Positions 5,571 to 31,211 of a DNA stretch of 64,000 nucleotides are shown here, one piece after another. Made by a program: the position numbers and the translations under genes. Under the pieces are notes generated by a model. It did not search any database and was not told the DNA's origin. It saw only the letters and a list, made by a program, of their open reading frames with translations. The stretch is from Candidatus Multivoradales bacterium (GTDB taxonomy: Bacteria; Acidobacteriota; Thermoanaerobaculia; Multivoradales; Multivoraceae). Each line of letters opens with the position of its first letter. The first letter of the stretch is position 1. Where the stretch lies: contig CBDCWI010000002.1 in assembly GCA_965223325.1 (NCBI GenBank), forward strand, positions 416,001 to 480,000. The letters are read 5' to 3'.

Positions 5571-5630
5571 GCAGTCTGTCTCCGTGCAGTCCGTCTCCGT
5601 GCAGTCCGTCTCCGCGTACTCAGTCTCCGC
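5571..5630. repeat. 15-bp tandem repeat (3 good copies + 1 degenerate)
   Basis: GCAGTCTGTCTCCGT / GCAGTCCGTCTCCGT / GCAGTCCGTCTCCGC / GTACTCAGTCTCCGC. Confidence 0.85.
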
Positions 5631-8600
5631 GCAATGCCGGCAGCAGTTCGAAGCTCAAGGCGCGCCGGACCGCAGCGAGGCTCGCCAGGCTGCCGACCAG
5701 GAGGACCGCCAACAGGGTCATCGCGAGACTGAGCCAGGGAACCGAAGCGCTCTGCTCGAGCAGATGCGGCCAGACGGCGACCAGGGCCGCCAGCGTGCCG
5801 ACGACCATGCCGGCGATCAAGACCAGGCCGTTTTCGGCCATCACCATCGTCGCCAGGCGGCGACCGCGGAAGCCGACGGCACGCAAGAGAGCGAGCTCGC
5901 GCCGGCGCTCCATCACGTTGCGTAGCAGAATGACTGCCAACCCCAGCGTTCCGAGCAAGAGGCCCAACCCACCCAGCGCCTGAAAGGTCCCCAGGTAGGT
6001 GTTTTCGACCGCCTGGAAGGCCTGCAGACGGGCGGCCGTCGTCGTCACGTCCATTCCGAAGGAATCAAGACCTTCCTCGAGCGTGTTGGTGATCACCGCT
6101 CCGCTCCCGACCGGGGCATCGATCAAGAACGAGGAGTAGCCCTCGATTCCCGGGAAGTGAGCGAGGAGCTGAGATTCGGCGATCACCAGTTCACTTTGAA
6201 AGACACTCTTGCGCAGAAGTCCCACGATACGGAGCCGTACCGTCTCTCCGCGCGCGTTCTCGAACTCGACCTCCTTGCCGAGTCCCGACTTGAGGATCCA
6301 GCGCACCGAATTGGCGTCTCCAAAGGCCGGCACTCTGCCACCTTCGAGGTCTTGTTCGAGTAACGACCAGGGATTCTCCGGCGGGCTCTCGAGGCCGAAA
6401 CTCTCCAGGTCGAGACCGGAGAACGTGAAACCCCCGCGCTCGATCAACTCCCGCGGTGCTCCCAGGAGCCGCGGCTCACTTGGCTGATAGAGGTTCAAGC
6501 AGCTGACGTCGTCTCCGCTGCGCACCCGGAAGGGGACGATCGTCGACGACTGAAATGCCTCCTCACTCTCTCCGCCAGCCGGGAGACCGAGCTCGAAGCG
6601 CCCGGTGGGAGTGCCCAGATCGTGATGAACGGCGATGTCTGACTCCGCCAGCAGGCTGAAGCCACCCGCACCCGAGCTGCGCTCGCGCAGCTCCTCACCG
6701 AAACGCAGTCCGTAGGCTCCCACCGAAACGATGACGAAGCACGCCGAGGCCACCAGCGCCGTGCTCAAAAGACTCCGCCCGGGATGCAGTCCCGCGTTGG
6801 CAAATGCCAGGCGACTCGGGCGACCAAAGCCGGAGCTCACACCGCCCCACCGCCCGGGTCGCAACAACATCGCAACCACCGCCAGGCCAAAACCCAGGAG
6901 GGCCGCGCCGAGGCCGAAAAAGAGCGCCGGGGCGGCTGTGCTGGCAACGGTCATCGAGGCTGCCAACAGCAGAAGAGCCAACCCCAGGCAGACCGCCGCC
7001 ACCCAACGGGCGCGCGAGGTCGAGCGTTGCTCGCCGGCATCGTCACTGGTGACGCCCCGCAGGAGAGCGGGAACCGGTAGCGCCGCCAGGCGGCGCACGG
7101 CTCTTTGCACCGCAAAGAGAATCACCAGAAACGAAGCGATCGCGCCAATGAAGAGGCTCAGCGGGCTGATGAACAACTCGAGCCGCGTTGCACCGACTGC
7201 GCCGCGCCAAAGCGTGGTGAGCGCGAAGATCATGGTTGCGGCGTAGGCGACAGCCAGAGCCACTCCGAGAGCGACGCCGAGGCCACCGAGAAGAGCGCCC
7301 TCGCCCAGGAAGCGCAGGCGAACCCCCTTGATGCTCTCTCCGATCGCCAGGCGAAGACCGAGCTCCGCAGCGCGACTCTCGACCAGGAGGCGAAAGAATA
7401 AGCCCACCAGGAGCGCCGCGGCGGCGATCAGGAACATGCTGAAGCCCAAGAACAGGCCGGTAAAGTCCGTCGCACCGCGCGCAGCATCGAGACTGCTGGC
7501 CTTGATGTCCTGAACGGCCAGGCCCGCCGCCGCCAGCGGGATGATCTCCGGCAACTCGCGACGCAGCGTCTCATCGAGTTCAGAGGAACCTCCCTCTGCT
7601 GCGAGGCGAATCTCGCTGAGCTCACCAAACCGACTCGACCACATGGCGCGCGCCGTCATCGGATGCACGAAGGCTTTCGGTGCTCCGCGATAGGCGTCCC
7701 AGTACTCTTCGTCGACCGAACGAATCAGCGAGAGGTCCACCGGAAAGGTCGGCTCCCAGTCCGACATGTCATCGACGTCGGAGACGCCCGGGTAGTCGGG
7801 GGTCAGTTCAGGATCGGCGCCCAGGCCACTCTGGCTGAGGATTCCGGCCACTTCGAAGGAACGCACCCGTTCGATCAGCTGCTCACGCTCGCCAACCTCG
7901 AAGTAGGCCAGGCCGACGCGGGCTCCAGCCGACACGTCGAGATTCTGCGCGGCCCATTCGTTGAGCAGAATCTGATCGCGCTCGAGCTCGGGCGGAGTCG
8001 AACCGTCGGTGAGCTGCCACTCTCCCAGCGCCGGCGACAGCGGGGGCGCAATCGCAGAAACCGTTGAATAGGGGATCAGGTCGGGCTCATCGCGACCGTC
8101 TCCGAAGTCAGGCCGAACCTCGACGCCGCGATCACTGATCTTCCACAGCCGATTCGCCAGGTACGTCGACACCGGCATGCTCGCCCAGCCGCGTTCGCGG
8201 GCTAGATCGAGCACTCGCCGCTCGACTTCGGGGCGCAGGATGATCTCGCGACTCCGCAACGCAACATGGTCTTCCTGCGCATTGCCCGCTCTCGAACGAC
8301 GCACCAGGATCTCGAGCCCCAGGTCGCTTTCGCTCGCCTGGCGGGCGAGCGCCTTGCGGAGGGCATCGCCGGCTACGTTCGGGGCTTCCCCGGGAGCACT
8401 GATCAAGAGCGCGTTCACCAGGCCGCGCCGATCGAGGGCACGGACCAGGACCCGCTCTTCGGCGAACGCGACGCGCGCCGAACCGCTCGGGTTGAGCCGG
8501 AAGCTCCCGACTCCACGGTCGGAAATGACCTCTCGCACGGAGAAACGAATCGACCGCACCATTGCGCTGGGATCGGTGTCACCCATCAGGGTCTCGCGGG

Positions 8601-9108
8601 GAACGTCACTCGGGCGCTCGAGCGACAGGAGGACCTCGTCGCCGTTGGTCACTGCGAGTTCCTCGGCAAGCGTCTGGTTGATCACCACCGAAGGGAAGGC
8701 CTGGCCCTCGCGGCGCTCGAACGAGAACGGCGGCTCGGTCGCTTCCGGGTCGTAGACCGAAAAGAAGCGCTCGTCGATACCCTGGACGCCGACCGCCGAA
8801 GCACGACGCCCTGTCTCGGGCGAGCGCATGGCACCCTGGAGCACGATGGCCGGTGCGACCTGCACTTCGCCACTCGGAAGGCTCTCGCCGAGATCCGCCG
8901 CCAGTCGCTCCCCGAGGTCGGCGGTGACGAAGGGCTCAGAGAGAACCGCAAAGTCCACTCCACCGAGACGCTCGAGGGTCAGTTGCCGCAGGCTGCCGCG
9001 AACCGAGTCGCCAACCAGAAGCGCACCAGTGAGAACCGCCGTCGTCGTCGCCGCGGCAAGGACAACCGCGAGACTCGAGCGCCAATAGAACTTCTGGGTG
9101 TCGAGCAT
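5620..9108 (-). CDS. Large ABC transporter permease, FtsX/MacB (type VII) family with duplicated permease domains
   Basis: Two FtsX-type TM blocks (ESRAAELGLRLAIG; ERRRELALLRAVGF), two large extracytoplasmic loops, adjacent ATPase gene. Confidence 0.88.
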   Translation of the reverse strand: MLDTQKFYWRSSLAVVLAAATTTAVLTGALLVGDSVRGSLRQLTLERLGGVDFAVLSEPFVTADLGERLAADLGESLPSGEVQVAPAIVLQGAMRSPETGRRASAVGVQGIDERFFSVYDPEATEPPFSFERREGQAFPSVVINQTLAEELAVTNGDEVLLSLERPSDVPRETLMGDTDPSAMVRSIRFSVREVISDRGVGSFRLNPSGSARVAFAEERVLVRALDRRGLVNALLISAPGEAPNVAGDALRKALARQASESDLGLEILVRRSRAGNAQEDHVALRSREIILRPEVERRVLDLARERGWASMPVSTYLANRLWKISDRGVEVRPDFGDGRDEPDLIPYSTVSAIAPPLSPALGEWQLTDGSTPPELERDQILLNEWAAQNLDVSAGARVGLAYFEVGEREQLIERVRSFEVAGILSQSGLGADPELTPDYPGVSDVDDMSDWEPTFPVDLSLIRSVDEEYWDAYRGAPKAFVHPMTARAMWSSRFGELSEIRLAAEGGSSELDETLRRELPEIIPLAAAGLAVQDIKASSLDAARGATDFTGLFLGFSMFLIAAAALLVGLFFRLLVESRAAELGLRLAIGESIKGVRLRFLGEGALLGGLGVALGVALAVAYAATMIFALTTLWRGAVGATRLELFISPLSLFIGAIASFLVILFAVQRAVRRLAALPVPALLRGVTSDDAGEQRSTSRARWVAAVCLGLALLLLAASMTVASTAAPALFFGLGAALLGFGLAVVAMLLRPGRWGGVSSGFGRPSRLAFANAGLHPGRSLLSTALVASACFVIVSVGAYGLRFGEELRERSSGAGGFSLLAESDIAVHHDLGTPTGRFELGLPAGGESEEAFQSSTIVPFRVRSGDDVSCLNLYQPSEPRLLGAPRELIERGGFTFSGLDLESFGLESPPENPWSLLEQDLEGGRVPAFGDANSVRWILKSGLGKEVEFENARGETVRLRIVGLLRKSVFQSELVIAESQLLAHFPGIEGYSSFLIDAPVGSGAVITNTLEEGLDSFGMDVTTTAARLQAFQAVENTYLGTFQALGGLGLLLGTLGLAVILLRNVMERRRELALLRAVGFRGRRLATMVMAENGLVLIAGMVVGTLAALVAVWPHLLEQSASVPWLSLAMTLLAVLLVGSLASLAAVRRALSFELLPALRGD

Positions 9109-9120
9109 CAGCGGTTGCCC

Positions 9121-9828
9121 TCAGGCCTCTGGTGCCACCAACCGACCGGCTTCGAGATCGCGCCGGACGGGAAAGCGCTCGGCAAGCTCACGATCGTGGG
9201 TGACGACGATCAGCATGCGTTCGCCAACCCCCAGACCGACTTCAAAGAGGAGCTCTGAAACTGCTCCCGCAGTTTCCTGGTCGAGATTGCCGGTCGGTTC
9301 ATCGCAAAGCAGCAGACGCGGGCCGTTGATCAGAGCGCGTGCCACCGCCACACGCTGGCGCTCACCCCCCGAGAGCTCCGCCGGTCGATGACCGTGACGC
9401 TTCGAAAGGCCTACCCTGTCGAGGAGATCGACCGCCACCGCCCGCGCGTCGACCGGCGAGCGGCCAATGGCGGTCGCCGGCAGAACGACGTTCTGGATGA
9501 CATCGAACTGCGGCAAGAGGTGATGGTCCTGGAAGACGAAGCCGACGTGTCGGCCGCGATAGGCGGCGAGCTCGGGCTCGGCCAGCTCGTGCGGGCAGCT
9601 GCCGTCGACCAGGACCCGGCCGCTACTCGGACGGTCAAGGCCACCCAGAATGTGTAGCAGGGTGCTCTTTCCCGAACCCGACGGGCCGGTGATCGCCAAG
9701 GCCTCACCGTTCGCAAGGTCGAGGTCGATATCCTTGAGCACGTCGATCTGGTGCTCGCCAGTCGTGTAGGTGCGCGAGACCCCGCGAACCTCGAGCGCGG
9801 CACCCGGCGGGGCTTCAGCGGACATCAT
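9121..9828 (-). CDS. ABC transporter ATP-binding protein, LolD/MacB-like
   Basis: GPSGSGKST, GFVFQ, LSGGERQRVAVARAL, LLCDEPTGNLD; start set at MMSAE. Confidence 0.92.
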   Translation of the reverse strand: MMSAEAPPGAALEVRGVSRTYTTGEHQIDVLKDIDLDLANGEALAITGPSGSGKSTLLHILGGLDRPSSGRVLVDGSCPHELAEPELAAYRGRHVGFVFQDHHLLPQFDVIQNVVLPATAIGRSPVDARAVAVDLLDRVGLSKRHGHRPAELSGGERQRVAVARALINGPRLLLCDEPTGNLDQETAGAVSELLFEVGLGVGERMLIVVTHDRELAERFPVRRDLEAGRLVAPEA

Positions 9829-9966
9829 GCGGGACCTTTCAGGGAGCGGGAGGGTCGTACGCACCGGTCTCTCAGTCGACGGCCGTAACGGTCCCACCGC
9901 AGGGATTTGAAAGAGTGCCGCAGCATACCGCGCCCGCAACCGCGGACGATCCGCGGCGGCGGCGGC

Positions 9967-10416
9967 TCAGGCCTCAGCGGGAGCCTCGGTGATGCGTTCC
10001 AGCAGCTCGCTGGGGATAGCGATCGAGCGCGGCCCGTCGCCCGTCAACTGGCAGCACACGGCGGTGATCTGCCCCCGTGCCACTTCCTTACCCTGGTGGT
10101 CGAAACAGAAACCCCAGGTGATCGACTTTCGACCGAGGCGCTCGATCCTCACCTTGATCTCGACTTCGTCTTCGAAACGTACCGGGCGAGTGAACGAGGC
10201 ACTCGACGTCACCCGTGGCCAACCGATCTGCTGGCCGCCGATTTCAGTGTGCACGCTGGTACCGACCGCGTTCCAAAACTCGTGCTCTGCCGCCTCCATG
10301 AACACGAAGTAGCGCGAGAAGTGAATGATGCCGGCCATGTCGGTGTCGGCGAACTCGATCCGCCTGCGGGTGGTGAACGCGAAGCGTCGACCCTGTTCAT
10401 CGACCTCTAGCTTCAT
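9967..10416 (-). CDS. Acyl-CoA thioesterase, hotdog fold (4HBT/YbgC family)
   Basis: RIEFADTDMAGIIHFSRYFVFMEAA motif; start overlaps GT stop (ATGA). Confidence 0.9.
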   Translation of the reverse strand: MKLEVDEQGRRFAFTTRRRIEFADTDMAGIIHFSRYFVFMEAAEHEFWNAVGTSVHTEIGGQQIGWPRVTSSASFTRPVRFEDEVEIKVRIERLGRKSITWGFCFDHQGKEVARGQITAVCCQLTGDGPRSIAIPSELLERITEAPAEA

Positions 10417-11723
10417 GATCGGTTCTCTGCCGCCACGGCGGCAATCGCCGCCTCGTAAGCGGCGATGGTGCTCGCCGCCATGGCCTTGTCTGAGTAGCGC
10501 TCGAGTACCGAGGTCCGACCCTGGGAACCCAGCTGGCGACGACGTTCCGGATCGCGAAGCAGCATCTCGATCCCAACGGCGAGGGCTTCGGGATCCCCGG
10601 GCTCGACCAGTACCCCGCCGCCGGTCGCCTCGATCATCTCGGGGAAGGCACCGTGCGCCGGCTGTACGACGGGCACTCCACTGGCCATCGCCTCGAGGAC
10701 CGGCAGCCCCTTGGGTTCCTGATAGACCGTGGGGACAGTGAGCACGTGCAGGCGATCGAGCATGTCGAGTTTCGCCTGGTGATCGATCTCGCCGTGGACT
10801 ACAACGTGCTCAGAAAGCCCCCACTCCTCGATGAGCGCGGTTTGCTCGTCCAGATAAGCGTGGTCGCGCCCACCGAGATAGCCGGCGATCTCGAAGCGCA
10901 CCTGGCCTGCCCCGAAGCGTCGACTGAGCAGGCGAAACGCCTGGGCGGCGTGGTGGAGCCCCTTCTCCGGGCAGATCCGGGCGATGTAGCCGACGACCCA
11001 AGGCGGTCCCTCAGCTTCGACGTTCTGATGGCCGTCTGTCGCGATGCCGAGCGGGGCCGTGTGGATCTTCTCGCGCGGCACAGAGAGAAGCTCCGCCATG
11101 CGGTCGGCGTACCACATGCTGGTTGAAACGAAGAGGTCGATGTCGCGACAGCGAGCACGCATCTCGCGGAGCACCTGCTCCTTCCAGGGATCTCTCAGGT
11201 CTTCGAGGAAGATGTCTTCGCCCTGCAAAGCACAAACGATGGGCACTCCTGGCAGGGCATCACGAATGCGATGGGCGATCCCCATCAACATCGAGTTGGT
11301 GATCTGCAGCACGTCGGGGCGGACTTCTTTGGCGAGCCAGCGCACCAGTTCGTCGAGCTCGCGGCTCTGGTCACCGTGCTCGCCGCGGAGCATCGAGAGC
11401 GTCAGGCCACCGAGAGAAGAGGCATCCGTGGCGGCGTTCGAGGTGCGTAGGAGCTTCAAGATGGCCGGCGAATCGAGCCACTTGACGAGTCGACGCGGAA
11501 TGCGCCGCCACAGCGCACTCTTCTCCTCGAGGTAGATATTGATCGCGCCGTAGAACACCCGCTCCGCCTCGACGCTCCCCTCGTCTGTGCGCAACGGGGT
11601 GTAGAGAGGCACCAGGACCGCGTCGTGACCCGCGGCACGTAGGGCGCGCACCAGGGTGACGTCACGAATGCAGCTGCCGCAGATCATTCCGGCAGCACCG
11701 GCCGCGACATAGACGATCTTCAT
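10413..11723 (-). CDS. Glycosyltransferase family 4 (GT-B) with N-terminal CxxC
   Basis: True start MKIVYVAAGAAGMICGSC at 11723 (ATGA overlap with symporter stop); ARICPEKG and EPKGLPVLEAMASGVPVV GT4 motifs. Confidence 0.88.
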   Translation of the reverse strand: MKIVYVAAGAAGMICGSCIRDVTLVRALRAAGHDAVLVPLYTPLRTDEGSVEAERVFYGAINIYLEEKSALWRRIPRRLVKWLDSPAILKLLRTSNAATDASSLGGLTLSMLRGEHGDQSRELDELVRWLAKEVRPDVLQITNSMLMGIAHRIRDALPGVPIVCALQGEDIFLEDLRDPWKEQVLREMRARCRDIDLFVSTSMWYADRMAELLSVPREKIHTAPLGIATDGHQNVEAEGPPWVVGYIARICPEKGLHHAAQAFRLLSRRFGAGQVRFEIAGYLGGRDHAYLDEQTALIEEWGLSEHVVVHGEIDHQAKLDMLDRLHVLTVPTVYQEPKGLPVLEAMASGVPVVQPAHGAFPEMIEATGGGVLVEPGDPEALAVGIEMLLRDPERRRQLGSQGRTSVLERYSDKAMAASTIAAYEAAIAAVAAENRS

Positions 11724-13231: not shown

Positions 13232-13477
13232 CTAGCTCCTGGCCTCACCGGGAGCCGGCGGCTCGCTGTCATCGGTTCGAGCGGCCCACTGCTCGAGGTC
13301 ACGGGGCCAGGCAACCCGCACCAGAAACCAGAGCACAACCGCCGCTGCCAGGCAGAAGGCCACCTGATAGGCCAGCCCAATGGGCAGCCCCAAGACCAGT
13401 TGCGGGTCATTCCACCACCAGAAGTCGAGTCGCACCAGGAAGAGTGCAACCACCAGAGCTACTGCCAGACGTCTCAT
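13232..13477 (-). CDS. Small membrane protein, DUF3311-like (SSS partner)
   Basis: DFWWWNDPQLVLGLPIGLAYQV motif, 2 TM, immediately upstream of SSS gene. Confidence 0.8.
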   Translation of the reverse strand: MRRLAVALVVALFLVRLDFWWWNDPQLVLGLPIGLAYQVAFCLAAAVVLWFLVRVAWPRDLEQWAARTDDSEPPAPGEARS

Positions 13478-13517
13478 GTGCGCCAGAGTGTAGCCTGGAC
13501 AGTGCGTCAGACGAGCG

Positions 13518-13554
13518 CCTTGATCCCCCGGAAAGCAGGGTTGCAGGATCAAGG
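13518..13554. promoter_or_regulatory. Intergenic hairpin (terminator or operator)
   Basis: CCTTGATCC (13518-13526) / GGATCAAGG (13546-13554) perfect 9-bp inverted repeat. Confidence 0.35.
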
Positions 13555-22214: not shown

Positions 22215-22571
22215 TCAGCGGCGGATCAGGAGATCCTTGTTGGTTTTCCCGGCTGCCAGGGCATCCTTGTACCACTGCGGGCGTCGACCACGCCCCGACC
22301 ACGTCTGGGAGCGGTCGGCCGGATTGCAGAACTTGGGAGGAAGTTTTCCGCGGCGTGCACCCCTCTTCTTGAGGCGGGGCGGTCCGGTCTTTTCGATGCT
22401 GAAAAGCGACTCGACGGTCTCCCCGACGTTGGCAGCGATCTTGCGAATTTCGCGCTTTGCTGCGGTGCGTTCGGCGCGTTTTCGCCGCCCGAGCTCGCCT
22501 TTGAGTTGGTTGAGTCGGCGCTCTAGTTCCTTGGTACTGACTTCTTCCATGATGTTCTCTCGGACCAGCAT
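22215..22571 (-). CDS. hns: H-NS family nucleoid-associated protein
   Basis: N-terminal coiled coil, basic linker, C-terminal PKFCNP...TWSGRGRRPQW DNA-binding motif; start 22571 (GGAGG upstream) or 22550. Confidence 0.85.
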   Translation of the reverse strand: MLVRENIMEEVSTKELERRLNQLKGELGRRKRAERTAAKREIRKIAANVGETVESLFSIEKTGPPRLKKRGARRGKLPPKFCNPADRSQTWSGRGRRPQWYKDALAAGKTNKDLLIRR

Positions 22572-22912
22572 CGACCTCAGGCCTCCCCGATGCTGCTTCA
22601 TTGATGTTTGACTAGGTGAAGATGGAAGCTGATCGATCTCGGTCGCTGATGGTACCGCTCGGGTCGAGCGGGGTGCCGAACCGGGACCCGCGAAGGGCTC
22701 GAGCCTCAGAAGCCCAGGCTTGAAAAGCTCAGGTCTGAGCAATCCGCGGCCATTGGCGATCTGGGGCCCTTGCAATCAAGCGCTGGAGTGGAGCGCCTTT
22801 CCTTTTCAGAAGAACTGCACACTACCCAATTTTCGGCGCCAGCGGTATCGCACGAGCCGCATGGCGCCAGAATGGCCAGGAATGGCGAGCACAGGCTGCT
22901 AAGGTCCCGTGC

Positions 22913-25165
22913 GTGTCACGTCCCTCGAAGAATGGCGGTCAGACGACTACCGCGCCGCCAGTCCTGCAGGTCGCGCCGGGAAGAGAGGGAGGCCTGGGCA
23001 CTTTTGGGGGCGTGTTCACCCCCTCGATTCTGACGATCCTGGGCGTCATCATGTACCTGCGCTTCGGCTGGGTACTGGCCAATGTCGGCCTCGCCGGAAC
23101 TCTCTTGATCGTCACCCTGGCGACGACGATCACGTTCCTGACGGCGCTCTCGATCTCCGAGATCGCGACCGACCAGCGGGTGCGGGGCGGCGGCGCCTAC
23201 TACATGATCAGCCGCTCGCTCGGCGTAGAAACCGGCGGAGCGGTCGGCCTACCGCTCTACGTCGCACTGACCCTGTCGATCGCGCTCTACACGGTCGGCT
23301 TCGCCGAAGCCGTGGTCGAGGTCTTTCCGCAACTTGATGCCCGTTGGGTCGGTCTCATCACGACTGTGCTGGTCGCTGGGCTCGCTCTCACTTCGGCGCG
23401 AGCTGCGATTCGCGCACAGTACTTCATCATGGCGGCCATCGCGCTCTCGCTCCTGGCTCTCGTTTTCGGCCAGCACCTGCCGGGTGAACCGCTGGGGCTG
23501 AGCGCTGGCCCCGCCGAGAACGCGGCACCCTTCTGGGTTGTGTTCGCAGTCTTTTTCCCTGCCGTCACCGGCATCATGTCGGGTGTCAACATGTCGGGCG
23601 ACCTCAAAGACCCGGGGCGCTCGATTCCATTCGGCACCCTGGCCGCCGTCGGCGTGGGCTACCTCATCTACATGGGGCTTCCGATTCTTCTCGCGACGCG
23701 CGCCAGCCAGGAGGCCCTGCTCGAAGAGCCGCTGGTCATGCGGCAGATGGCCGCCTGGGGTCCGGCGATCGTGCTCGGCGTCTGGGGCGCCACCCTATCG
23801 AGCGCCGTTGGAAGCATGCTGGGAGCCCCGCGGGTGTTGCAGGCGCTGGCGCGCGACGGGGTTCTGCCGCGCGGCCTGGACTGGCTGGGGCGTGGCAGCG
23901 GAACCGAAGACGAGCCACGCAACGGCACCGTCCTGACGCTCGCGATCGCGCTCGGCGCTGTTGCGATTGGCGACCTCAACATGATTGCCCCGGTCTTGAC
24001 CATGTTCTTCCTGACCACCTACGGGGTGCTCAACGTGGTCGCCGGTGTCGAGAGGTTCCTCGGTAGCCCCTCGTTCAGGCCGCAGTTTCGCGTTCACTGG
24101 GGCCTATCGATTCTCGGCGCCATCGGCTGCGCCGGTGTCATGCTCTTGATCAACCCCTTAGCGACCGGAATCGCCGGCGTCGTCGTGCTGGCGATCTTCG
24201 TCTGGCTCGAGCGTCGCGAGATGACCACGGCCTGGGGTGACGTGAGGCGCGGCGTTTGGATGGCGATCACGCGCGCCGGCCTCCTACGGTTGCGCGATCC
24301 GGTCGACGCCAAGAACTGGCGGCCGCACATGCTCGTCTTGTCGGGTGCACCAACCAAACGCTGGCACTTGATCGAGCTCGCCCGCGACCTGGGACATGCC
24401 AAGGGCCTGATCACCGTCGCGACAGTTCTTCCTCAGAAGGCACTCGAAGCCGATCGCCAGATCGCCCTCGAGTCGACCATTCGCGACTACATCGAGAAAC
24501 GTGGTGTCACCGCCCTGGTGCGGGTGGTGCCCGGCGAGGATCCCTTCATCGGCGGCGAGATGCTGGCGCAGTACTACGGGTTGGGCTCGATCGTCCCCAA
24601 CACCGTCATTCTCGGTGGCAGCGCCGAAAGCGACCATCGCCAGCGCTACTGCGAGATGATCAGCCGCTTCCATCAGGCGCAACGCAACGTCGTCCTGGTC
24701 CACGGCGGCGACGGGGGGCTCGTTCGCGGCCGGCGCCGAATCGACGTCTGGTGGGGTGGTCTGCAGAGAAACGGCGGCTTGATGACCGTGCTCGCGTACC
24801 TACTCCAGACCAGCCGCCCCTGGCGCAACGCCGAAGTCCATCTCAAGATGGTCGTCCAGGACGAACGAGCCGCCGACGGCTGTCGCAGCAATCTTGCCAC
24901 CCTGGTCGCCCGTGCCCGCACCGGCGCCCAGATCCAGGTGATCGTCGCCGAGGGGCGTCCCTTCGGTGACATCCTGCGCGAGGAGTCGGCCGGCGCCGAC
25001 GTCGTTTTTCTCGGTCTCGCCAAACCCGACCCCGACGACATGGCCGCCTTCACCGAGTACTACGCGCAGCTCATCGGGCGCATCGCTCCCCTGCCGACCA
25101 CCCTCATGGTGCTCGCGGCTGAAGACCTGGCCTTCGGCGAGGTCCTCCTCGAGCAGGACTTCTAG
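22913..25165 (+). CDS. SLC12/cation-chloride cotransporter-like amino acid permease-family protein
   Basis: LGTFGGVFTPSILTILGVIMYLRFGW, GGAYYMISRSLG, FAVFFPAVTGIMSG.NMSGDL.DP, KNWRPHMLV, IDVWW cytoplasmic domain. Confidence 0.88.
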   Translation: MSRPSKNGGQTTTAPPVLQVAPGREGGLGTFGGVFTPSILTILGVIMYLRFGWVLANVGLAGTLLIVTLATTITFLTALSISEIATDQRVRGGGAYYMISRSLGVETGGAVGLPLYVALTLSIALYTVGFAEAVVEVFPQLDARWVGLITTVLVAGLALTSARAAIRAQYFIMAAIALSLLALVFGQHLPGEPLGLSAGPAENAAPFWVVFAVFFPAVTGIMSGVNMSGDLKDPGRSIPFGTLAAVGVGYLIYMGLPILLATRASQEALLEEPLVMRQMAAWGPAIVLGVWGATLSSAVGSMLGAPRVLQALARDGVLPRGLDWLGRGSGTEDEPRNGTVLTLAIALGAVAIGDLNMIAPVLTMFFLTTYGVLNVVAGVERFLGSPSFRPQFRVHWGLSILGAIGCAGVMLLINPLATGIAGVVVLAIFVWLERREMTTAWGDVRRGVWMAITRAGLLRLRDPVDAKNWRPHMLVLSGAPTKRWHLIELARDLGHAKGLITVATVLPQKALEADRQIALESTIRDYIEKRGVTALVRVVPGEDPFIGGEMLAQYYGLGSIVPNTVILGGSAESDHRQRYCEMISRFHQAQRNVVLVHGGDGGLVRGRRRIDVWWGGLQRNGGLMTVLAYLLQTSRPWRNAEVHLKMVVQDERAADGCRSNLATLVARARTGAQIQVIVAEGRPFGDILREESAGADVVFLGLAKPDPDDMAAFTEYYAQLIGRIAPLPTTLMVLAAEDLAFGEVLLEQDF

Positions 25166-25202: not shown

Positions 25203-26702
25203 CTACTGGCTACCGGCACCCTCTTCGATTGCGAACAGCGAAGCACGCGTCGCGATGTACATCACACCGCCTTCGGCCACCGGTGTGGTGTAGATGGCAC
25301 GTCCCATGTTCTGCTCTGCCAGGACCTTTTCTTCCTTGCCGGTGGCGAGAACCACGATGTCGCCGTCCTCGTCGCCGAGATAGATCTTGCCGTCGGCAAC
25401 GAAAGGTGAGCCCCAGACCGCCGCGAAGGTGTCGTGCACCCAGAGTTCCTTGCCGGTTTCGGCATCGAGTGCGTAGAGGAATCCTGAGAGATCGGTGATG
25501 TAGACGACTCCGTCATGGATGGCGGCAGTCGAGATCGTCCGGTTGAAGGCGTCACCACCGACATGGAAAACGGCCGCCGTGTCGGTCACGTCTCCCTCCT
25601 GGGTCGCATCAAGAGCGTAGAAATGGCCTTCGCCCTCACCGTGCTCGGGATCCTGGCCGACACCAACGTAGAAGCGGTTCTTGTAGAACACCGGTGTCGA
25701 GATGACGTTGTTGCGAGTTCCAGCACCGCCAAGCTCCCACACCGAGTCTTTGGGGTTCATATCGAACTTCCACAGCAACTTGCCGGTGAGCGGCGCGTAG
25801 ACGTACAGCCACCCGTCGCCACCCGGGAAGGCAACCTGGCCAACTCCGTTGACGTCACCGTAGGCGGCGTTCGACCAGGTACCGTGGAGGATGTTGTCGC
25901 CCGGGTCGGCCGACTCCCACACCAGCTTGCCGGTGTTCTTGTTGATCGCCACGAAGCTCGGGCCCGCCGGTGACGGAATGTTGACGTGGCCCTCGTCGAC
26001 ACCGTTGCCTGTGGTCACGTAGAGAATGTCGCCGACCACGAGGGGCGAGCTGGCCGCGAGGTTGTGCGGAAAGACGTCGAGCTCGCCGATGAGATCGAAC
26101 GTCCACAGGATGTCAGCGTCGCGCTCGGTCTTGTACTGCTCGTCGGTGAACGGGCCGTCGTTCTCTCCGTCATGGAACCCATTGGTGTCGACGGCCACGA
26201 CTTCGGCGCGATTCGACAGGTACCAGGCGACTTCCCCTTCGATGTAGGGCGTCGAGCAGACCCCCTGTAACGGCCAATCGTTGACCCGCCCGGCGGGCAG
26301 CTTGTCGTGAGTGGCTTGCCAGAGCAATCTGCCGGTCTCAGCGTCGAACGCCAAGACGACACCTTTGTCACCTTCAATCCCTGAGATGAGGTTGCCCTCG
26401 TTGTTCGTGCCGACGTAGACCTTGCCGTCGTAGACCACCGGACCGGCGTAGGTCTGCGAGCCGAGCTTGGTTTCCCACTTGATGTTCTTGCCGCTTTCGA
26501 CGTCCCATTCGGTCGCCAGGCCGGTCTCGTCGGAGACCATGTTGCGACCGGGGCTACCGCCGAAGATGCCGTACTCCTTGTCCGGGTCCTCGGCGACAAG
26601 GCCGGGCACCCAGATGCTTGCCACCAACAGGAGAAGGCCAGCTACGGCCAACGCGAGACGCGCCGACCTACGAGTCGAAGAATGTGGTTGACGGTGGAGC
26701 AT
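25203..26702 (-). CDS. PQQ-like beta-propeller protein, secreted
   Basis: Signal peptide; GGSPGRNMV, W..KLGSQTYAGPVV, repeated YALDA.TG..LW blades; acidic insert DTNGFHDGENDGPFTDE. Confidence 0.85.
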   Translation of the reverse strand: MLHRQPHSSTRRSARLALAVAGLLLLVASIWVPGLVAEDPDKEYGIFGGSPGRNMVSDETGLATEWDVESGKNIKWETKLGSQTYAGPVVYDGKVYVGTNNEGNLISGIEGDKGVVLAFDAETGRLLWQATHDKLPAGRVNDWPLQGVCSTPYIEGEVAWYLSNRAEVVAVDTNGFHDGENDGPFTDEQYKTERDADILWTFDLIGELDVFPHNLAASSPLVVGDILYVTTGNGVDEGHVNIPSPAGPSFVAINKNTGKLVWESADPGDNILHGTWSNAAYGDVNGVGQVAFPGGDGWLYVYAPLTGKLLWKFDMNPKDSVWELGGAGTRNNVISTPVFYKNRFYVGVGQDPEHGEGEGHFYALDATQEGDVTDTAAVFHVGGDAFNRTISTAAIHDGVVYITDLSGFLYALDAETGKELWVHDTFAAVWGSPFVADGKIYLGDEDGDIVVLATGKEEKVLAEQNMGRAIYTTPVAEGGVMYIATRASLFAIEEGAGSQ

Positions 26703-26770: not shown

Positions 26771-29023
26771 TCAGTTTGGGGTCACGGTGACGTTGTCAAA
26801 CGCGACCGGCGCCGGCGAGTAGCCCTGGAGGCCGGGGGTTCCGTAACGGTTGGGCATTGGGTCTTCGGCGGTAATGGTCCACTCCGCGGGCTCACTCTCG
26901 CCCCGTTTCCAGACCTTGCCCAGAACTCGACCACCGCTGTCGTGGGCTTCAACCCGCAGCTTCAAGGTGTACCAGGCGTCGACGTCCCACTCGAAAGGAA
27001 TCGTCACTGCCATCCGCTTGACCGCCGACCAGGTCCGCAGCTCGAGCTTCTGACCGTTGCCTAGCAGGTCGAGAAAGTAGCCCTGGTTGACCAGGCCGAC
27101 GTCGGTCATGCGGCGACCGGCCTGCCCGCCCCGCACGTCGGCCTGCACGGTGTAGTTCGACAGATAGGGCGTTCCCAGGAACAAGTTGGAGCGTAAGAGA
27201 CCGGCCTCGGCGACCGGCTTCTCAAGCATCTTGCCGCCTGAAGGCCCATCGACGACCTGGTAGCGGCCCAGTCCCAGCCAGTAGGGCCGGCCACGACCGG
27301 TGATGTCATCGAAATCCTCGCTCCATGGAAGCGGCGGGAAGACCCGTACGCGCCCGGTGACTTCGTGACCAGCCACTCTGACCTTGACGACGCCCGCACT
27401 CGCCGCGCTCTCGGCGGGCACCGTGAGCTTGCCGCTCGCACTGTTCCCGGTGACCGCGCCGGGCAGGCCTTCGAGCGACCAGCTCGCCTCGCCCGCTGGC
27501 TCGAGGCGACGCCCGACCTCGTTGAAGACACGCACCTCGTAGTCGACGCTCTCGCCGGTTCCCGCAATGGTCTCCGCCGGCAACAGCAACACCTGGGCAA
27601 CGTCATCGGAACCACGCTTCTCCGCCGGCTGCGGCGGCGCCGCCGACTCGCGCACCTCGAAGGCCCGGCCTTCCTCTGCCAGAGCGTAGATTCCTTCTTC
27701 GGTGGTGAAGTAGACGCGGCCGTAGGCAACTGCCGGCGAGCCGTAGATCTCAGCGTAGCGTGAGCGACGGCCTTCCTTGATCTCGACGTACTCGCGGTCC
27801 AGCACTTCGGCCGCGTCGCCCTTGTCCTCGAGAATCCAGAACAGGCCGTTGACCTCGGTGACGTAGAGCTTGCCGTCGGCCCACACCGGAGCCGCCTTCC
27901 CCACCGTCCCGAGTTCGGTCTCCCAGATCGTCTCGCCGCCGTTCAGGTCGAGCGCCATCAGGTTGGCCGAGTTGTCCATCACGTAGAGACGCCCCTCGTG
28001 CTCGAGTGGCGACGGGAAACCCATCTTGATGTCGCGGCGCCACTTCTCGTGCGTTTTCGTCACATCGCCGCTGCCGGTGGCATCGATCGCCACCAGCCGA
28101 CCGAGGGTCGCTTCGTCGACGTTCTCTTCCGAATGGCCGATGATCACCGTCTCGCCCACCACGATGGGCGAGCTGTTGATACCGCGCTTGGAGAGCTCGA
28201 AGCTCCAGATCTTCTTGCCGGTTCGTGCCTGCAACGCGTAGATGTGCCCGTCGGCGTTACCGGTGATCAGCATGCGCTGACCATCGATCACGGCGCTGGT
28301 GATGTTCGAGGACGTGTTGCGGTCGTAGGGGAAACCACCCGGGGTCGAAATCCATACCAGGCGGCCGTCTCCCTTGTCGAAGGCGTAGTAGCGATGGGTC
28401 GGGCGACCGAGCGGCCCCCACGAGGAGTTGATGTTGCTGACGATGAGCAGGTCTTCGTCGATGATTGGGCTCTGGGTGCGCCCGCCGTAGCCCGAGAAGC
28501 GACCGAACTCCTCAGACATCAGGTGCTCCCACACCAACTCGCCGTCGCGATCGTAGGCAACGACCGGCCCGGCAACGCCCTGCGCGTACACAAGGCCAGT
28601 TTCGGGGTCGACGATGGGACCGGCCCAGCCGGCCCGGTTGTACGGAACTGTCGTGAGCTGAGTCGTCAAGGTGCGCTCCCACAGCGGTTCTCCGGTTTCG
28701 GCATCGAAGGCGGCGAGAACTTCTCGGCGCGTGTTGCCTTCGCCGGCCCGACCCGTGGTGAACAGCCGCCCGCGGTGAATCACCGGCGTTGCACGGCCGA
28801 TGAAGTCGGTGCGCCAGGCCAGGTTCTCGCCGTCTTGTGACCACGACGACGGGAGGCCTGTCTCAGCGGACACGCCGCGCTGCGTCGGTCCCCGCCAGGA
28901 AGTCCAGTCGCCCGCGGTCGCGAGCTCGGGTAGAACCAGGAGCGCCAGCGCGAAGCAACCGCCAACGGCGGCCATGAACGAAGCGGTAGCGCTCGAGGCG
29001 TTCGGTCTCGAGAAGGTCAACAT
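26771..29023 (-). CDS. PQQ-like beta-propeller protein with C-terminal Ig-like and concanavalin/DUF1080-like domains
   Basis: AGGAG RBS before ATG 29023; signal peptide, DWTSWRGP, propeller blades, C-terminal WSEDF...WYTLKLRV...VAFDNVTV jelly-roll pattern. Confidence 0.82.
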   Translation of the reverse strand: MLTFSRPNASSATASFMAAVGGCFALALLVLPELATAGDWTSWRGPTQRGVSAETGLPSSWSQDGENLAWRTDFIGRATPVIHRGRLFTTGRAGEGNTRREVLAAFDAETGEPLWERTLTTQLTTVPYNRAGWAGPIVDPETGLVYAQGVAGPVVAYDRDGELVWEHLMSEEFGRFSGYGGRTQSPIIDEDLLIVSNINSSWGPLGRPTHRYYAFDKGDGRLVWISTPGGFPYDRNTSSNITSAVIDGQRMLITGNADGHIYALQARTGKKIWSFELSKRGINSSPIVVGETVIIGHSEENVDEATLGRLVAIDATGSGDVTKTHEKWRRDIKMGFPSPLEHEGRLYVMDNSANLMALDLNGGETIWETELGTVGKAAPVWADGKLYVTEVNGLFWILEDKGDAAEVLDREYVEIKEGRRSRYAEIYGSPAVAYGRVYFTTEEGIYALAEEGRAFEVRESAAPPQPAEKRGSDDVAQVLLLPAETIAGTGESVDYEVRVFNEVGRRLEPAGEASWSLEGLPGAVTGNSASGKLTVPAESAASAGVVKVRVAGHEVTGRVRVFPPLPWSEDFDDITGRGRPYWLGLGRYQVVDGPSGGKMLEKPVAEAGLLRSNLFLGTPYLSNYTVQADVRGGQAGRRMTDVGLVNQGYFLDLLGNGQKLELRTWSAVKRMAVTIPFEWDVDAWYTLKLRVEAHDSGGRVLGKVWKRGESEPAEWTITAEDPMPNRYGTPGLQGYSPAPVAFDNVTVTPN

Positions 29024-29232
29024 TCTGGTCACTCCTGTGGGAACCGGCGCCTGGGAGGGCGAGCGCCTGATTCTGAGCCTTCGGTACTTGGTTGGGATGA
29101 GAGCGTTGGGTCTGAGGGGTGCTCGGAAGGGATTCTCGGCCTCGAGCGCCTTTCGTACCATGGGTGCAGGCGCGGCGGGACTGAGTCCGCCCTGAAAGCG
29201 CTCCCTGAAACGCGTGCGGCCGCCGGTGAATT

Positions 29233-30723
29233 TCAACGGAGATCAGAGTATACGACGCGCCGGAGGCTCTTGCGGGTGGCCAGAAACAGCGATCGACCCT
29301 CGAAAACCGGGGACGAATAGACCCCGACAGCGAGTTCGGCCTCTGCCAAGACCTCGAGTTCAGGACCCAGACCGAGCACAGCCAGGTCGCCGTCTGTGTC
29401 GACAACCAGGACCCGATCGCCGACCACCAGTGGAGTCGCCCAGATCGGCGCCAACATGTCGTAGCGCCAGTGCTCGCTGCCATCTCCAGGGTCGAGGGCG
29501 TGGACGTAGCCATCGAGGTCGACGGCAAGCACCATTCCTGGGGCCGCCGCGACCCGTGCGATGGTGCGGCCGAAGCGTGCACCAGCAGACCCGCTGTCGG
29601 TCCCCATGCTCCAGGCGAGTACCGGTTCGCCACCGGGAAGCGCGTCGAGGGCGAACAGCCGGCCCGGCGCCGCTCCCGCCTCGGGATCACGACCCATGGC
29701 CAGGTAGATGCGGTGCTTCGCTCGGCCTCCCAGCCCTGGTACGACCACCGGGCTCGCGACGATCGCATGCCGCAGGTGTTCGGAGGCGTCCCCCTGCCCC
29801 TGGTTACCGTCGAAGCTCCAGCGCAGCGCGCCGGTCGCGGGGTCGAGAGCCACCAGGCGCCCGTCTCCGCCGCCGTAGAGCACCGCGCCACCTCCTCTCT
29901 GCGGGCCGGGCAGCCAGGTGGGGCTCGACCATTGACCGTCGACCAGATCGCCATCGGCGATCTCGAAGGTCCACAGCAGTTCTCCCGTGCGCCGAGTAAC
30001 GGCGATAAGACCGGGGCTTCGGGTGTCCCCGCCGCTGTGCTTTGCGCCGCGTCCTTCAGGCGGACCGTGGCCGGTGGCGACGAAAACCCGCTCGCCCACC
30101 ACGAGCGGCGACGAGGCCGACATGAAGTGCTGGCGAACACCCAGGCGCGCTGGCATGTCGAAGGCCCAGCGCACGCTTCCGCCTCGGTCGATTGCCGTCA
30201 GCTCACCGCGGTTGGTGACGAAGAACAGGCCTCCCGAGCCGGTGACGGTCGGAGTCGAGCAGATTCCCTGGAGCGGCCAATCGCGATCGCCGTCGGCGAG
30301 CTTTGAACGCTCGAAGCGCCAGATACGAGCGCCGGTCTCGAGGTCGAAGCCCAGGAGCACACCGAGATCTGGCGCATCGATAGCTGCGTCCGCGGCCGAC
30401 TCGCCGTTGGTTCCGACGACCACCATCTGCGGAGTGATCACCGGCCCGGCATAGCTTTCCGAGCCGAGTTCGACCTCCCACACCTCACGAGCCCTCGCCT
30501 CACCCAGCAGCCAGTCTTCGAGCGCCACCGGTCCGGAGGGCGTGACCACCGGGTTGCGCGACAGGGGCCAGACGTCTTCCGCCGCGAAAGGCGACCGCAC
30601 GCGCGCGGCGCTTGGCGACTCGCTCGCACCGTCGGTCGAGGCACAACCAGCGAGCAGAGCCAGGCTCGAAGCCACGATAAGGAGCCGCCACCGGCCTGAG
30701 CTCGCTGCCCTGGGCGACGTCAC
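29233..30723 (-). CDS. PQQ-like beta-propeller lipoprotein (paralog of 25203-26702)
   Basis: GTG start overlapping upstream stop; lipobox LLAG-C; LGSESYAGPVI and DWPLQGICSTP shared with the 499-aa propeller. Confidence 0.8.
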   Translation of the reverse strand: MTSPRAASSGRWRLLIVASSLALLAGCASTDGASESPSAARVRSPFAAEDVWPLSRNPVVTPSGPVALEDWLLGEARAREVWEVELGSESYAGPVITPQMVVVGTNGESAADAAIDAPDLGVLLGFDLETGARIWRFERSKLADGDRDWPLQGICSTPTVTGSGGLFFVTNRGELTAIDRGGSVRWAFDMPARLGVRQHFMSASSPLVVGERVFVATGHGPPEGRGAKHSGGDTRSPGLIAVTRRTGELLWTFEIADGDLVDGQWSSPTWLPGPQRGGGAVLYGGGDGRLVALDPATGALRWSFDGNQGQGDASEHLRHAIVASPVVVPGLGGRAKHRIYLAMGRDPEAGAAPGRLFALDALPGGEPVLAWSMGTDSGSAGARFGRTIARVAAAPGMVLAVDLDGYVHALDPGDGSEHWRYDMLAPIWATPLVVGDRVLVVDTDGDLAVLGLGPELEVLAEAELAVGVYSSPVFEGRSLFLATRKSLRRVVYSDLR

Positions 30724-31211
30724 ACCGGCTTGAACATGGTCACCAACCAGGCGCCGGTGCCAGCCATCGCGATTCCCAGCAGGAACGGCCAGCGAATCGC
30801 GTCCAGGCCTCCGGCGGGCGGATGAAACGACATCGCGACGAACGCGTTGACGATCGGGGCACAGCCAAAAACGATCGACATCACGACTGCCGGAGTGCCC
30901 CCGCTGCCGAACGCCAGGAGCACACCGAAGGCCCCGATCGCCCCAACGACGCCGGCCACCAGTGACCAGATCGCACCCTTGGGAGATACGGCAAAGCCAC
31001 CGCCGTTCAACCACAGAAGAGCGGCCGGCGCCAGCACCGCGGTCAAGAAGTACGCAATGCCAACCCACAGAAACGCTTTGTAGCGACCGTTGATCGGGTC
31101 TCCGATCGCCATGTTTCCCTGGTGCAGAAAGACGCCGTAGCACCCCCATGCCGCAACCGTCATGAAAGCAAACCACAGCCAACCCATCGAAGCACCATCG
31201 GTCGTTGCCAT
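30720..31211 (-). CDS. Small 5-TM membrane protein (DMT/EamA-like half)
   Basis: Five hydrophobic helices, WGCYG, GVVGAIGAFG, VMSIVFGCAPIVN; GGAGG RBS. Confidence 0.75.
   Translation of the reverse strand: MATTDGASMGWLWFAFMTVAAWGCYGVFLHQGNMAIGDPINGRYKAFLWVGIAYFLTAVLAPAALLWLNGGGFAVSPKGAIWSLVAGVVGAIGAFGVLLAFGSGGTPAVVMSIVFGCAPIVNAFVAMSFHPPAGGLDAIRWPFLLGIAMAGTGAWLVTMFKPV

Follow-up and report, generated by a model that had tools for sequence, protein, structure and literature searches.

A rearranged copy of a widely conserved gene module for a predicted flavin-dependent halogenase, a HemN-like radical SAM enzyme and secreted propellers

Results and Discussion

Gene content of the locus

The window analyzed here (64,000 nucleotides; G000:C2:416001-480000, i.e., a stretch of contig C2 of the source genome G000) carries at positions 5620-31211 a gene cluster for a halogenase-type flavoenzyme, a HemN-like radical S-adenosylmethionine (SAM) enzyme, secreted propeller proteins, and transporters. 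The genome comprises 6.69 Mb in two contigs and is 98.2% complete; its closest named relatives bear the labels Acidobacteriota, Thermoanaerobaculia, or "Candidatus Multivoraceae." The region is the G000 version, in rearranged form, of a module that is widely conserved and is common to uncultured Acidobacteriota, Poribacteria, and Latescibacterota. Open reading frames (ORFs) of the window were listed and scanned against Pfam and NCBIfam, and gene overlaps were verified by script. The interval contains 18 supported ORFs (coordinates refer to the window unless preceded by C2, which denotes the contig):

5620-9108, minus strand: FtsX/MacB-type (type VII ATP-binding cassette, ABC) permease, 1162 amino acids, with duplicated FtsX domains (Pfam FtsX, E = 4.6e-20, two stretches)
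9121-9939, minus strand: ABC ATPase, LolD/MacB/DevA-like (ABC_tran, E = 3.5e-33)
9967-10416, minus strand: hotdog (4HBT, YbgC/FadM-like) acyl/aryl-coenzyme A (CoA) thioesterase (4HBT_2, E = 2.9e-12)
10413-11723, minus strand: glycosyltransferase of family GT4 (Glycos_transf_1, E = 1.8e-29, and Glyco_transf_4)
11720-13225, minus strand: sodium:solute symporter (SSS; SSF, E = 6e-37)
13232-13552, minus strand: small DUF3311 membrane protein, the usual partner of SSS proteins (PF11755, E = 1e-7, above the cut-off)
13590-14657: signal-anchored protein of 355 amino acids, no family
15214-16803: secreted pectate-lyase-fold protein, 529 amino acids
16861-18135, minus strand: flavin-dependent halogenase of the pyrrole/phenol (Bmp2/PltA/Mpy16) type (Trp_halogenase, E = 7.3e-22)
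18132-19520, minus strand: HemN-like radical SAM enzyme (Radical_SAM, E = 7.8e-22)
19637-20884, minus strand: secreted propeller p415, 8-blade-type, PQQ_2/BamB-like (PQQ_2, E = 3.3e-43)
20972-22138, minus strand: iron-containing alcohol dehydrogenase (Fe-ADH; Fe-ADH, E = 3.3e-45, and ADH_Fe_C)
22215-22775: H-NS-like DNA-binding protein (PF00816, E = 1.4e-14)
22913-25165, plus strand: SLC12-type/K-Cl-cotransporter-like protein (TIGR00930, E = 2.8e-134)
25203-26702, minus strand: propeller p499 (PQQ_2, E = 5.2e-29)
26771-29236, minus strand: propeller p821 (PQQ_2, E = 7.1e-30)
29233-30723, minus strand: propeller p496, a diverged paralog (PQQ_2, E = 4.6e-28)
30720-31211, minus strand: protein of 163 amino acids with five predicted helices (5-TM protein), no known family

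Fourteen of these genes had been described in an earlier note on this DNA as a co-oriented minus-strand series. All 14 were present and in the order claimed, but they do not form an unbroken run: four ORFs that had gone unlisted (those for the 355-residue, pectate-lyase-fold, H-NS-like, and SLC12-type proteins; the last on the plus strand) stand among them, and a gap of 556 nucleotides without any ORF (14658-15213) lies between the halogenase gene and the DUF3311 gene. Counterparts of the four were found in none of the 100 related loci described below, and we read them as local insertions. In G000, the H-NS-like gene and the divergently oriented SLC12-type gene split the propeller block from the Fe-ADH gene. 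The four 4-nucleotide overlaps that the note had given (GTGA at 30720-30723; ATGA at 18132-18135, 11720-11723, and 10413-10416) were all exact, and a fifth (TTGA, 29233-29236) joins propellers p496 and p821. The stated lack of polyketide synthase, nonribosomal peptide synthetase, and acyl carrier protein (ACP) genes was also borne out: the carrier (PP-binding) domain had 12 matches in G000, none of them inside C2:416001-480000, and no ketosynthase domain was present among the annotated ORFs of the window.

Conservation of the cluster across phyla

The proteins of the window were compared by tblastn with 100 loci seeded with the radical SAM gene. Twenty of these came from genomes of the same order (20-kb stretches around the ortholog) and 80 were the best named loci from a scan of the genomes of 185,579 species, where 582 of 588 candidate stretches encoded a relative of the enzyme. 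The labels of these 80 were Poribacteria (36), Acidobacteriota lineages (25), Latescibacterota (9), and KSB1 (1), with nine other or unlabeled. Counts over the 100 loci are lower bounds, as flanks extended to 10 kb at most and several contigs were cut; at least three loci are duplicates (L001 = L021, L006 = L030, L020 = L031). The recurring order was (p821, p499), (EhpF-like, EhpG-like), Fe-ADH, p415, radical SAM enzyme, (PaaK-like ligase/propeller/TonB receptor), followed by halogenase, (DUF3311-SSS or TAXI), GT4, thioesterase, ABC ATPase, and FtsX permease. EhpF and EhpG belong to the D-alanylgriseoluteic acid (phenazine) pathway of Pantoea agglomerans, where they form a carboxylate-reductase pair. 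The members were recovered as follows:

p415: 91/100 loci (next to the radical SAM gene, across phyla)
Fe-ADH: 81/100
Halogenase: 69/100
PaaK-like ligase: 47/100
p499: 39/100
EhpG-like protein: 34/100
SSS: 32/100
GT4: 32/100
TonB receptor: 24/100
TAXI: 23/100
p821: 23/100, four Poribacteria-labeled loci among them
EhpF-like protein: 21/100
Thioesterase: 20/100
ABC ATPase: 17/100
FtsX permease: 10/100, all Acidobacteriota-labeled
5-TM protein: 9/100 (10 counted, L006 and L030 being one contig)

Cluster proteins from different phyla were 55-68% identical. In many relatives, the halogenase and ligase genes lie 0-3 kb apart, and short tblastn matches to DUF3311 adjoin the SSS gene. The genes for GT4, the thioesterase, and the ABC ATPase/FtsX pair were essentially limited to Acidobacteriota-labeled loci, GT4 occurring additionally in two of the nine Latescibacterota loci. 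Membership persisted where the order was shuffled: L047 (Vicinamibacterales label) reads GT4, ABC, FtsX, three propellers, 5-TM protein, radical SAM enzyme, thioesterase, halogenase, and L049, L086, L095, and L099 likewise keep the members despite a reshuffled order. The earlier note had suggested a similar gene set in Planctomycetota, Verrucomicrobiota, and Acidobacteriota. Acidobacteriota were indeed found, together with loci labeled Poribacteria, Latescibacterota, and KSB1; Planctomycetota and Verrucomicrobiota were not among the best 80 of the 582 loci, no dedicated search having been made for them.

Co-inheritance of the module genes

Orthologs were counted in three sets of genomes: the 40 nearest to G000 (radical SAM ortholog threshold, identity ≥56%); 200 Acidobacteriota drawn evenly, which take in two unpublished genomes (G088 and G189) each with an adjacent radical SAM-halogenase pair; and 81 genomes of the phylum of L071 (Poribacteria by label). 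Related genomes in these counts are non-independent samples. Among the 40 nearest, the radical SAM enzyme, p415, and p499 had orthologs in one identical set of 33 genomes; the remaining seven (G006, G028, G029, G031, G032, G034, and G035) lacked all three. Halogenase orthologs were present in 30 of the 33, being absent only in fragmented genomes (G002, G009, and G014), whereas the seven module-negative relatives had only paralogs of 29-37% identity. The PaaK-like ligase was found in 27 of the 33 positive genomes and in none of the seven negative ones. Among the 200 Acidobacteriota, 46 had both the radical SAM enzyme and the halogenase (44 of 198 when the two unpublished genomes were left out), two had the former only (G115 and G225), one the latter only (G230, 72% complete), and 151 neither. 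The corresponding numbers for the Poribacteria-labeled set were 73, 2, 1, and 5.

The two genes were kept together also where they were not neighbors. In 37 of the 46 Acidobacteriota with both, they lie within 4 kb of each other, in one ∼10 kb and in one 565 kb apart (G080), and in seven on different contigs; in G005, both are kept at a distance of ∼65 kb. The co-occurrence, repeated in two phyla, and the retention of both genes when separated rule out mere juxtaposition. The genes form one real, conserved module that is co-inherited beyond chance. Scattered, uncorrelated orthologs, which the earlier note had named as evidence against such a system, were thus not what was found. That several unrelated operons merely stand side by side, with no function in common, is very improbable. 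The four non-conserved genes (one on the opposite strand) and the 556-nucleotide gap, which interrupt the array, would suit such an arrangement, as would the location of the halogenase part on another contig or far away in several genera, but the strong co-occurrence in two phyla, even of separated genes, and the constant membership under changed order contradict it.

Extent of the cluster in G000

The boundaries originally proposed for the system, 5620-31211, proved wrong, because a ligase gene, a further propeller gene, and the genes for a TAXI-type tripartite ATP-independent periplasmic (TRAP) importer at 35055-42718 belong to the cluster neighborhood as well, and an EhpF/EhpG-like pair lies 212 kb off:

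35055-36320, plus strand: PaaK-like aryl/acyl-CoA ligase (AMP-binding_C_2, E = 5.1e-13)
36348-37235: alpha/beta hydrolase
37805-39343, minus strand: fifth PQQ_2 propeller (PQQ_2, E = 4.4e-33)
39434-41455, minus strand: TAXI-TRAP fused permease (TRAP_fused, 557 bits, above the cut-off)
41471-42718, minus strand: TAXI-TRAP solute-binding protein (TRAP_TAXI, 248 bits, above the cut-off)
C2:203248-204351: EhpF-like protein (matches EhpF in the Protein Data Bank [PDB] over its full length, E = 1.6e-45)

The ligase at 35055-36320 is the G000 ortholog of a PaaK-like family encoded directly after the radical SAM gene in 46 loci. Its scores were 192 bits for PaaK, 110 for FlxY (cut-off 520), and 72 for BagE/FevW, every one of them below the cut-off. 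The fifth propeller is the best match in G000 (35-39% identity) to a propeller family that trails the radical SAM gene in 28 loci, and in 23 of the 100 loci, 22 of them Poribacteria-labeled, a TAXI ortholog (58-62% identity) is encoded downstream of the halogenase. The radical SAM and halogenase genes overlap (ATGA) in G000, whereas 2-3 kb of other genes separate them in relatives. The EhpF-like gene, which in relatives is situated between p499 and Fe-ADH, is part of a pair at C2:203248-205999 amid phosphotransferase system and phosphoenolpyruvate carboxylase genes; its neighbor encodes an aldehyde-dehydrogenase-like protein. What is shared with the phenazine pathway is the EhpF match and the partner of this kind that follows it; the pair is outside the window. 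No further parts of the cluster were found in that region of G000. Upstream of the EhpF-like gene, ORFs of 84, 342, and 379 amino acids had no match in any locus and are probably not genes.

An ORF of 742 codons on the minus strand (34713-36941), without any family match, was rejected as spurious, being no more than the shadow that the PaaK-like ligase gene casts on the opposite strand; the "hits" that tblastn gave for it in Latescibacterota loci are antisense matches to ligase genes. Such a shadow ORF with matches across phyla calls for caution in the ORF-based reading of DNA with 65% G+C.

The halogenase and its accessory variants

The top PDB matches of the flavoenzyme were all halogenases (8zop, E = 2.8e-65; Bmp2, 5bva; Mpy16, 5buk; PltA, 5dbj; ChlB4; CndH, 3e1t; CmlS, 3i3l). 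Its FAD-binding motif GxGxxG reads GAGPAG (residues 15-20), the three glycines being invariant in 55/55 orthologs. Flavin-dependent halogenases are marked by the motif WxWxIP and a conserved catalytic lysine. The former reads WFWYIP (residues 222-227), with both tryptophans, the isoleucine, and the proline invariant in all 55 orthologs, and aligns with the motif of 8zop, Bmp2, and Mpy16; the lysine corresponds to K76, which is likewise invariant (55/55) and aligns with the lysine of the same three proteins. No sequence hallmark of a flavin-dependent halogenase is therefore missing from the protein, and with invariant motifs and only halogenases among the top PDB matches, halogenation is taken as the probable conserved chemistry of the module.

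In three additional loci (L102-L104), the gap of 0.6-0.9 kb between the radical SAM and halogenase genes is filled by a gene for a protein of ∼185 amino acids. One of them, L103, has a minimal set of radical SAM enzyme, 185-residue protein, halogenase, and ligase between DapF and Icd/Mdh housekeeping genes. The 185-residue protein had no sequence match in Pfam, NCBIfam, or the PDB and was identified by fold search alone: its structural model (predicted local distance difference test [pLDDT] score 92.9) gave as best Foldseek match the DUF98 protein AF1396 (2nwi, TM 0.77), with 1jd3 and 1fw9 also matching. According to the model, it folds like DUF98/AF1396 and the chorismate lyase UbiC, and some of its homologs are named chorismate-pyruvate lyase at the Joint Genome Institute. 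PF01947 had no match in G000; a weak homolog of the UbiC-fold protein is encoded at C2:709039-709605, amid EF-P, TruD, and RNase D genes.

Two further regions contain halogenase-like genes. In L110 (G179:C146:3299-8873), a paralogous radical SAM enzyme and a paralogous halogenase (41% identity each) are followed by a second HemN-like radical SAM enzyme and a flavin amine oxidase, which points to diversification of the radical SAM-halogenase duo. In G000 itself, C2:214003-228258 encodes an FkbO/Hyg5-like chorismatase, an ACP (PP-binding, 217631-217849), and another halogenase-like protein (226639-228258); this region may be an aryl-polyene-like cluster, separate from the present one.

The radical SAM enzyme is not a heme enzyme in G000

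The radical SAM enzyme contains the motif CxxxCxxC, then YF, and a HemN_C region. It scored below the cut-off of all NCBIfam models concerned (STM4012, 182 bits versus 380; HutW [TIGR04107], 176 versus 400; HemN [TIGR00538], 173 versus 325; HemW, 142 versus 205), and the HemN model gave 169 bits in a search of the whole genome. Among solved structures, it matched HemN (1olt, E = 1.3e-31) and, over residues 66-273 only, the methyltransferase NocN (9p2u, E = 5.4e-25). Protein clusters that resemble it at E ≤ 1e-60 number at least 7,999, and the source has for them only the name "coproporphyrinogen III oxidase family." Class C radical SAM methyltransferases, such as NocN/NosN, ChuW, and MenK, have a HemN-like fold without the fourth cysteine of HemN. 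With these and with HemN (CgdH), the present enzyme shares the fold family, the CxxxCxxC motif, and the HemN_C region; it differs from them in staying below every curated cut-off, in having no heme context, and in occurring always with a secreted propeller and usually with a halogenase. Judged by its sequence, it belongs to a distinct HemN-like branch.

Given this resemblance, the enzyme might be the coproporphyrinogen dehydrogenase (HemN) of the cell, or an anaerobic heme degrader of the ChuW/HutW type working with a TonB receptor. HemN is the best solved match, the HutW and HemN models reach 176 and 173 bits, and a TonB receptor gene does lie beside the radical SAM gene in relatives. The scores are, however, far below the curated HemN and HutW cut-offs, and the receptor of the relatives fits a siderophore model rather than the heme model (61 bits versus 317) and has no ortholog in G000. 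Moreover, HemE, HemF, ferrochelatase, ChdC, and AhbA/B were not found in G000, and neither HemN nor AhbD exceeded the cut-off, so that a HemN would have no substrate there. HemW is encoded elsewhere in the genome (C2:693113-694192). Nor does the module follow the pathway in other genomes: 27 of 33 cluster-positive relatives have HemE, as do four of seven cluster-negative ones, which is no correlation. A heme function, rejected for its sub-cut-off scores, the missing pathway, and the lack of correlation with HemE, is largely refuted and can hardly be given any credence; the radical SAM protein is no heme enzyme in G000. HemE is absent from nine of the 40 relatives, among them G001 of the same genus, and the G000 organism may be a heme auxotroph or use an unknown route.

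The propellers and the 5-TM protein

Propeller p415 reached 165 bits with the BamB model (TIGR03300; cut-off 285), and its orthologs are confined to the 33 relatives with the radical SAM enzyme, unlike what a general envelope factor would show; it does not qualify as BamB. In the orthologs, a Sec-type signal peptide precedes a conserved start, FRG(N/D)PQLTG. Export by the twin-arginine pathway was considered and dismissed, there being no conserved RR motif (RR in 11 of the 45 N-termini that showed a hydrophobic stretch; none showed in the other orthologs, their ORF starts being uncertain). The best-conserved protein of the cluster is p499 (57-75% identity across the order), upstream of which p821 orthologs (45-61% identity) are encoded in 23 of the 100 loci. 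For p496, related loci gave only matches of 34-43% identity, none with ≥40% identity over more than 50% of the length. For the 5-TM protein, Pfam and NCBIfam gave nothing, even under lax thresholds; its AlphaFold2 model has five helices (pLDDT 67) and found no match in the PDB by Foldseek at E ≤ 0.001. Its orthologs (39-71% identity) are encoded beside the GT4/thioesterase genes or beside the radical SAM gene.

At first look, the 33 module-bearing genomes had 17-137 candidates for PQQ-like (pyrroloquinoline quinone-like) propellers, versus 2-32 in the seven module-free ones; this crude measure suggests that propeller expansions go with the module. It is conceivable that the cytoplasmic enzymes make a small aromatic cofactor or ligand that the co-inherited secreted propellers bind, be it as prosthetic group or as signal. 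Such a role would fit the perfect tracking of the radical SAM enzyme by p415 and p499 (33/33 and 0/7), the adjacency of p415 and the radical SAM gene in 91 of the 100 loci, and the larger number of propeller candidates in module-bearing genomes. On the other hand, the candidate counts are crude and the genomes related, the propellers match generic PQQ_2/BamB repeats only, with no binding site identified, and the enzyme core of L103 has no propeller within 10 kb. All in all, this account is doubtful. The same low likelihood is given to its more specific form, in which the product of the core, a halogenated aromatic, would be no ordinary secondary metabolite but a cofactor bound by the propellers or a ligand obligate to them; if true, this would be a new cofactor system, and it would explain why "empty" propellers have expanded in Acidobacteriota, Poribacteria, and their relatives.

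Transport, glycosylation, and thioesterase genes

Several of the proteins that would serve transport and release resembled named families at scores below their cut-offs. For a MacB-type transporter, the FtsX match of the permease and the match of the ATPase are clear; the permease matched MacB_PCD at E = 9.5e-4 (19.9 bits versus a cut-off of 27) and, in part, the ADOP duplicated permease; the best NCBIfam models of the ABC ATPase and the SSS protein were LolD (248 bits, cut-off 307.75) and a PanF-like model (125 bits, below the cut-off), and the thioesterase reached 57 bits with TIGR00051 (cut-off 68.7). The TonB receptor of the relatives passed a siderophore-receptor model (256 bits versus 223.5). 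Importers were more widespread than exporters (SSS, 32; TAXI, 23; TonB receptor, 24; versus ABC, 17 of the 100 loci).

That the importers are the most general transport part would suit a salvage or catabolic locus. Here, an exogenous aromatic acid would be taken up via the TonB receptor, the periplasmic propellers, and the SSS or TRAP transporter, then activated and converted in the cytoplasm, and the ABC, GT4, and thioesterase genes would be a neighboring envelope module. The siderophore-type receptor agrees with such a function, and family- to phylum-wide conservation befits core physiology; furthermore, a CoA ligase with a hotdog thioesterase is reminiscent of the phenylacetate pathway. Yet the invariant lysine and WxWxIP motif (55/55) indicate installation of a halogen, which has no known catabolic role, and genes for ring cleavage or beta-oxidation were present in none of the annotated loci. 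The UbiC-like lyase of some variants also argues for a substrate that is made, not taken up. Uptake and conversion as the purpose of the module is therefore considered unlikely, but it deserves more weight than the preceding alternatives.

Proposed function of the module

The most likely function of the module is to halogenate a small carboxylic acid that is aromatic and probably phenolic, to modify it further, and to carry it across the envelope; we hold this explanation with moderate confidence. The acid would be taken up via SSS/DUF3311 and TAXI-TRAP in G000, and via the TonB-dependent receptor in relatives, some of which would make it by means of the UbiC-like lyase instead. It would be activated by the PaaK-like ligase, and its ring halogenated by the flavoenzyme. 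The HemN-like enzyme would introduce a further modification, most likely a C-methylation of the kind that class C radical SAM methyltransferases catalyze, and the EhpF/EhpG-like pair together with Fe-ADH would reduce the carboxylate toward the alcohol. In Acidobacteriota, GT4 may glycosylate the product, the hotdog thioesterase may hydrolyze CoA esters (for release or proof-reading), and the MacB-type ABC transporter may export it. The secreted propellers, strictly co-inherited with the radical SAM enzyme, would bind or process the molecule in the periplasm. The import, tailoring, and export that the earlier note had envisaged thus fit the gene content, while methylation, glycosylation, and a periplasmic propeller complex are inference.

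Several observations weigh against this explanation. The GT4, thioesterase, and ABC exporter genes, which had been presented as members of the system, were found within 10 kb in none of the 36 Poribacteria-labeled loci; they are lineage-specific add-ons, and export and glycosylation are consequently not in the universal core. The wider spread of importers compared with exporters also goes against it. The window contains neither a flavin reductase gene nor a UbiC-like cluster gene, in addition to lacking a carrier protein. The radical SAM enzyme is near-universal in the Poribacteria-labeled genomes (75/81), which, with 55-68% identity across phyla, is unusual for secondary metabolism and keeps alive both the uptake-and-conversion and the propeller-ligand alternatives. 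Finally, only likeness to its family suggests what reaction the radical SAM enzyme would catalyze, and the explanation as a whole, drawn from a parts list, does not account for the role of the propellers.

Relation to known systems

No paper was found in the literature that assigns a product or function to the module, and no characterized pathway with such a combination of genes. The claim that the system is undescribed is nevertheless no longer quite true, as a preprint covers part of it, without a product (Loureiro et al, bioRxiv 2026, 10.64898/2026.08.03.742642). According to its accessible text, sponge metagenomes were mined for halogenase plus AMP-binding genes ("Halo_AMP"; rule: Trp_halogenase and AMP-binding, cutoff 5, read here as 5 kb, neighborhood 20), which gave 20 cluster types, with clusters containing radical SAM, PQQ-like, glycosyltransferase, thioesterase, ABC, and TonB genes in Acidobacteriota, Latescibacterota, and Poribacteria. 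There, no match in MIBiG and no product are reported, PQQ-like domains are called unusual in biosynthetic gene clusters (BGCs), and the clusters are read as host-specific natural-product BGCs of sponge symbionts. The likeness to the present module is considerable, as a flavin halogenase and a PaaK-type AMP ligase are accompanied by the same six kinds of genes. As far as that text goes, the focus cluster of the preprint (CC A) differs in carrying P450 genes, of which the window has none, and the module as seen here is a family- to phylum-wide trait that occurs also in metagenome-assembled genomes (MAGs) whose names do not indicate sponges. With the halogenase gene ending at 18135 and the ligase gene starting at 35055, ∼17 kb away, the Halo_AMP rule, with its cutoff read as above, would not call the locus in G000. 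What is added to the accessible content of the preprint is the phylum-scale distribution, the strict co-inheritance of the propellers, the carboxylate-reducing genes, and the occurrence in MAGs not named after sponges.

Among characterized systems, a chorismate lyase with a flavin-dependent halogenase (and a P450) is a proven route to bromophenols (Bmp5/Bmp6-type), as described in the accessible part of PMC10579414. The present module resembles it in the phenol/pyrrole-type flavin halogenase and, in L102-L104, in the UbiC/DUF98-fold protein encoded between the radical SAM enzyme and the halogenase. It differs in that the cluster in the window has neither lyase nor P450 and that a HemN-like radical SAM enzyme, a CoA ligase, the carboxylate-reducing set, propellers, and transporters are present besides; Bmp5 was not among the listed PDB matches of the halogenase, the best being 8zop, Bmp2, Mpy16, and PltA. 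With aryl polyene/flexirubin clusters, the module has in common a halogenase-like flavoenzyme, a hotdog thioesterase, a glycosyltransferase, and a FlxY-like ligase, but the window lacks the ketosynthase and ACP. We class the module as an orphan form of halogenase-based aromatic tailoring that is widely conserved and is tied, in a way not yet explained, to secreted propellers. It pairs what appears to be a true flavin halogenase with a putative new branch of HemN-like radical SAM enzymes and with these propellers. If the product were a halogenated phenolic, these bacteria could represent a major source of natural organohalogens that has been overlooked in sponges, sediments, and soils, and the module would give direct access to a long-open question, namely which symbionts produce the organobromines of sponges.

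Neighboring genes

Adjoining the propeller block, the minus strand of 31313-34214 encodes a dynamin-like GTPase of 574 amino acids, orthologs of which (47-59% identity) were present in seven of the 100 loci (one a duplicate), all Acidobacteriota-labeled or from the order of G000. A legume-lectin-domain protein is encoded beside it, with no counterpart seen in relatives. Beyond the TAXI-TRAP genes, two large secreted proteins of 1110 and 804 amino acids are encoded on the minus strand (42719-48652), with matrixin-type M10 metalloprotease and InlB B-repeat (Flg_new_2) domains.

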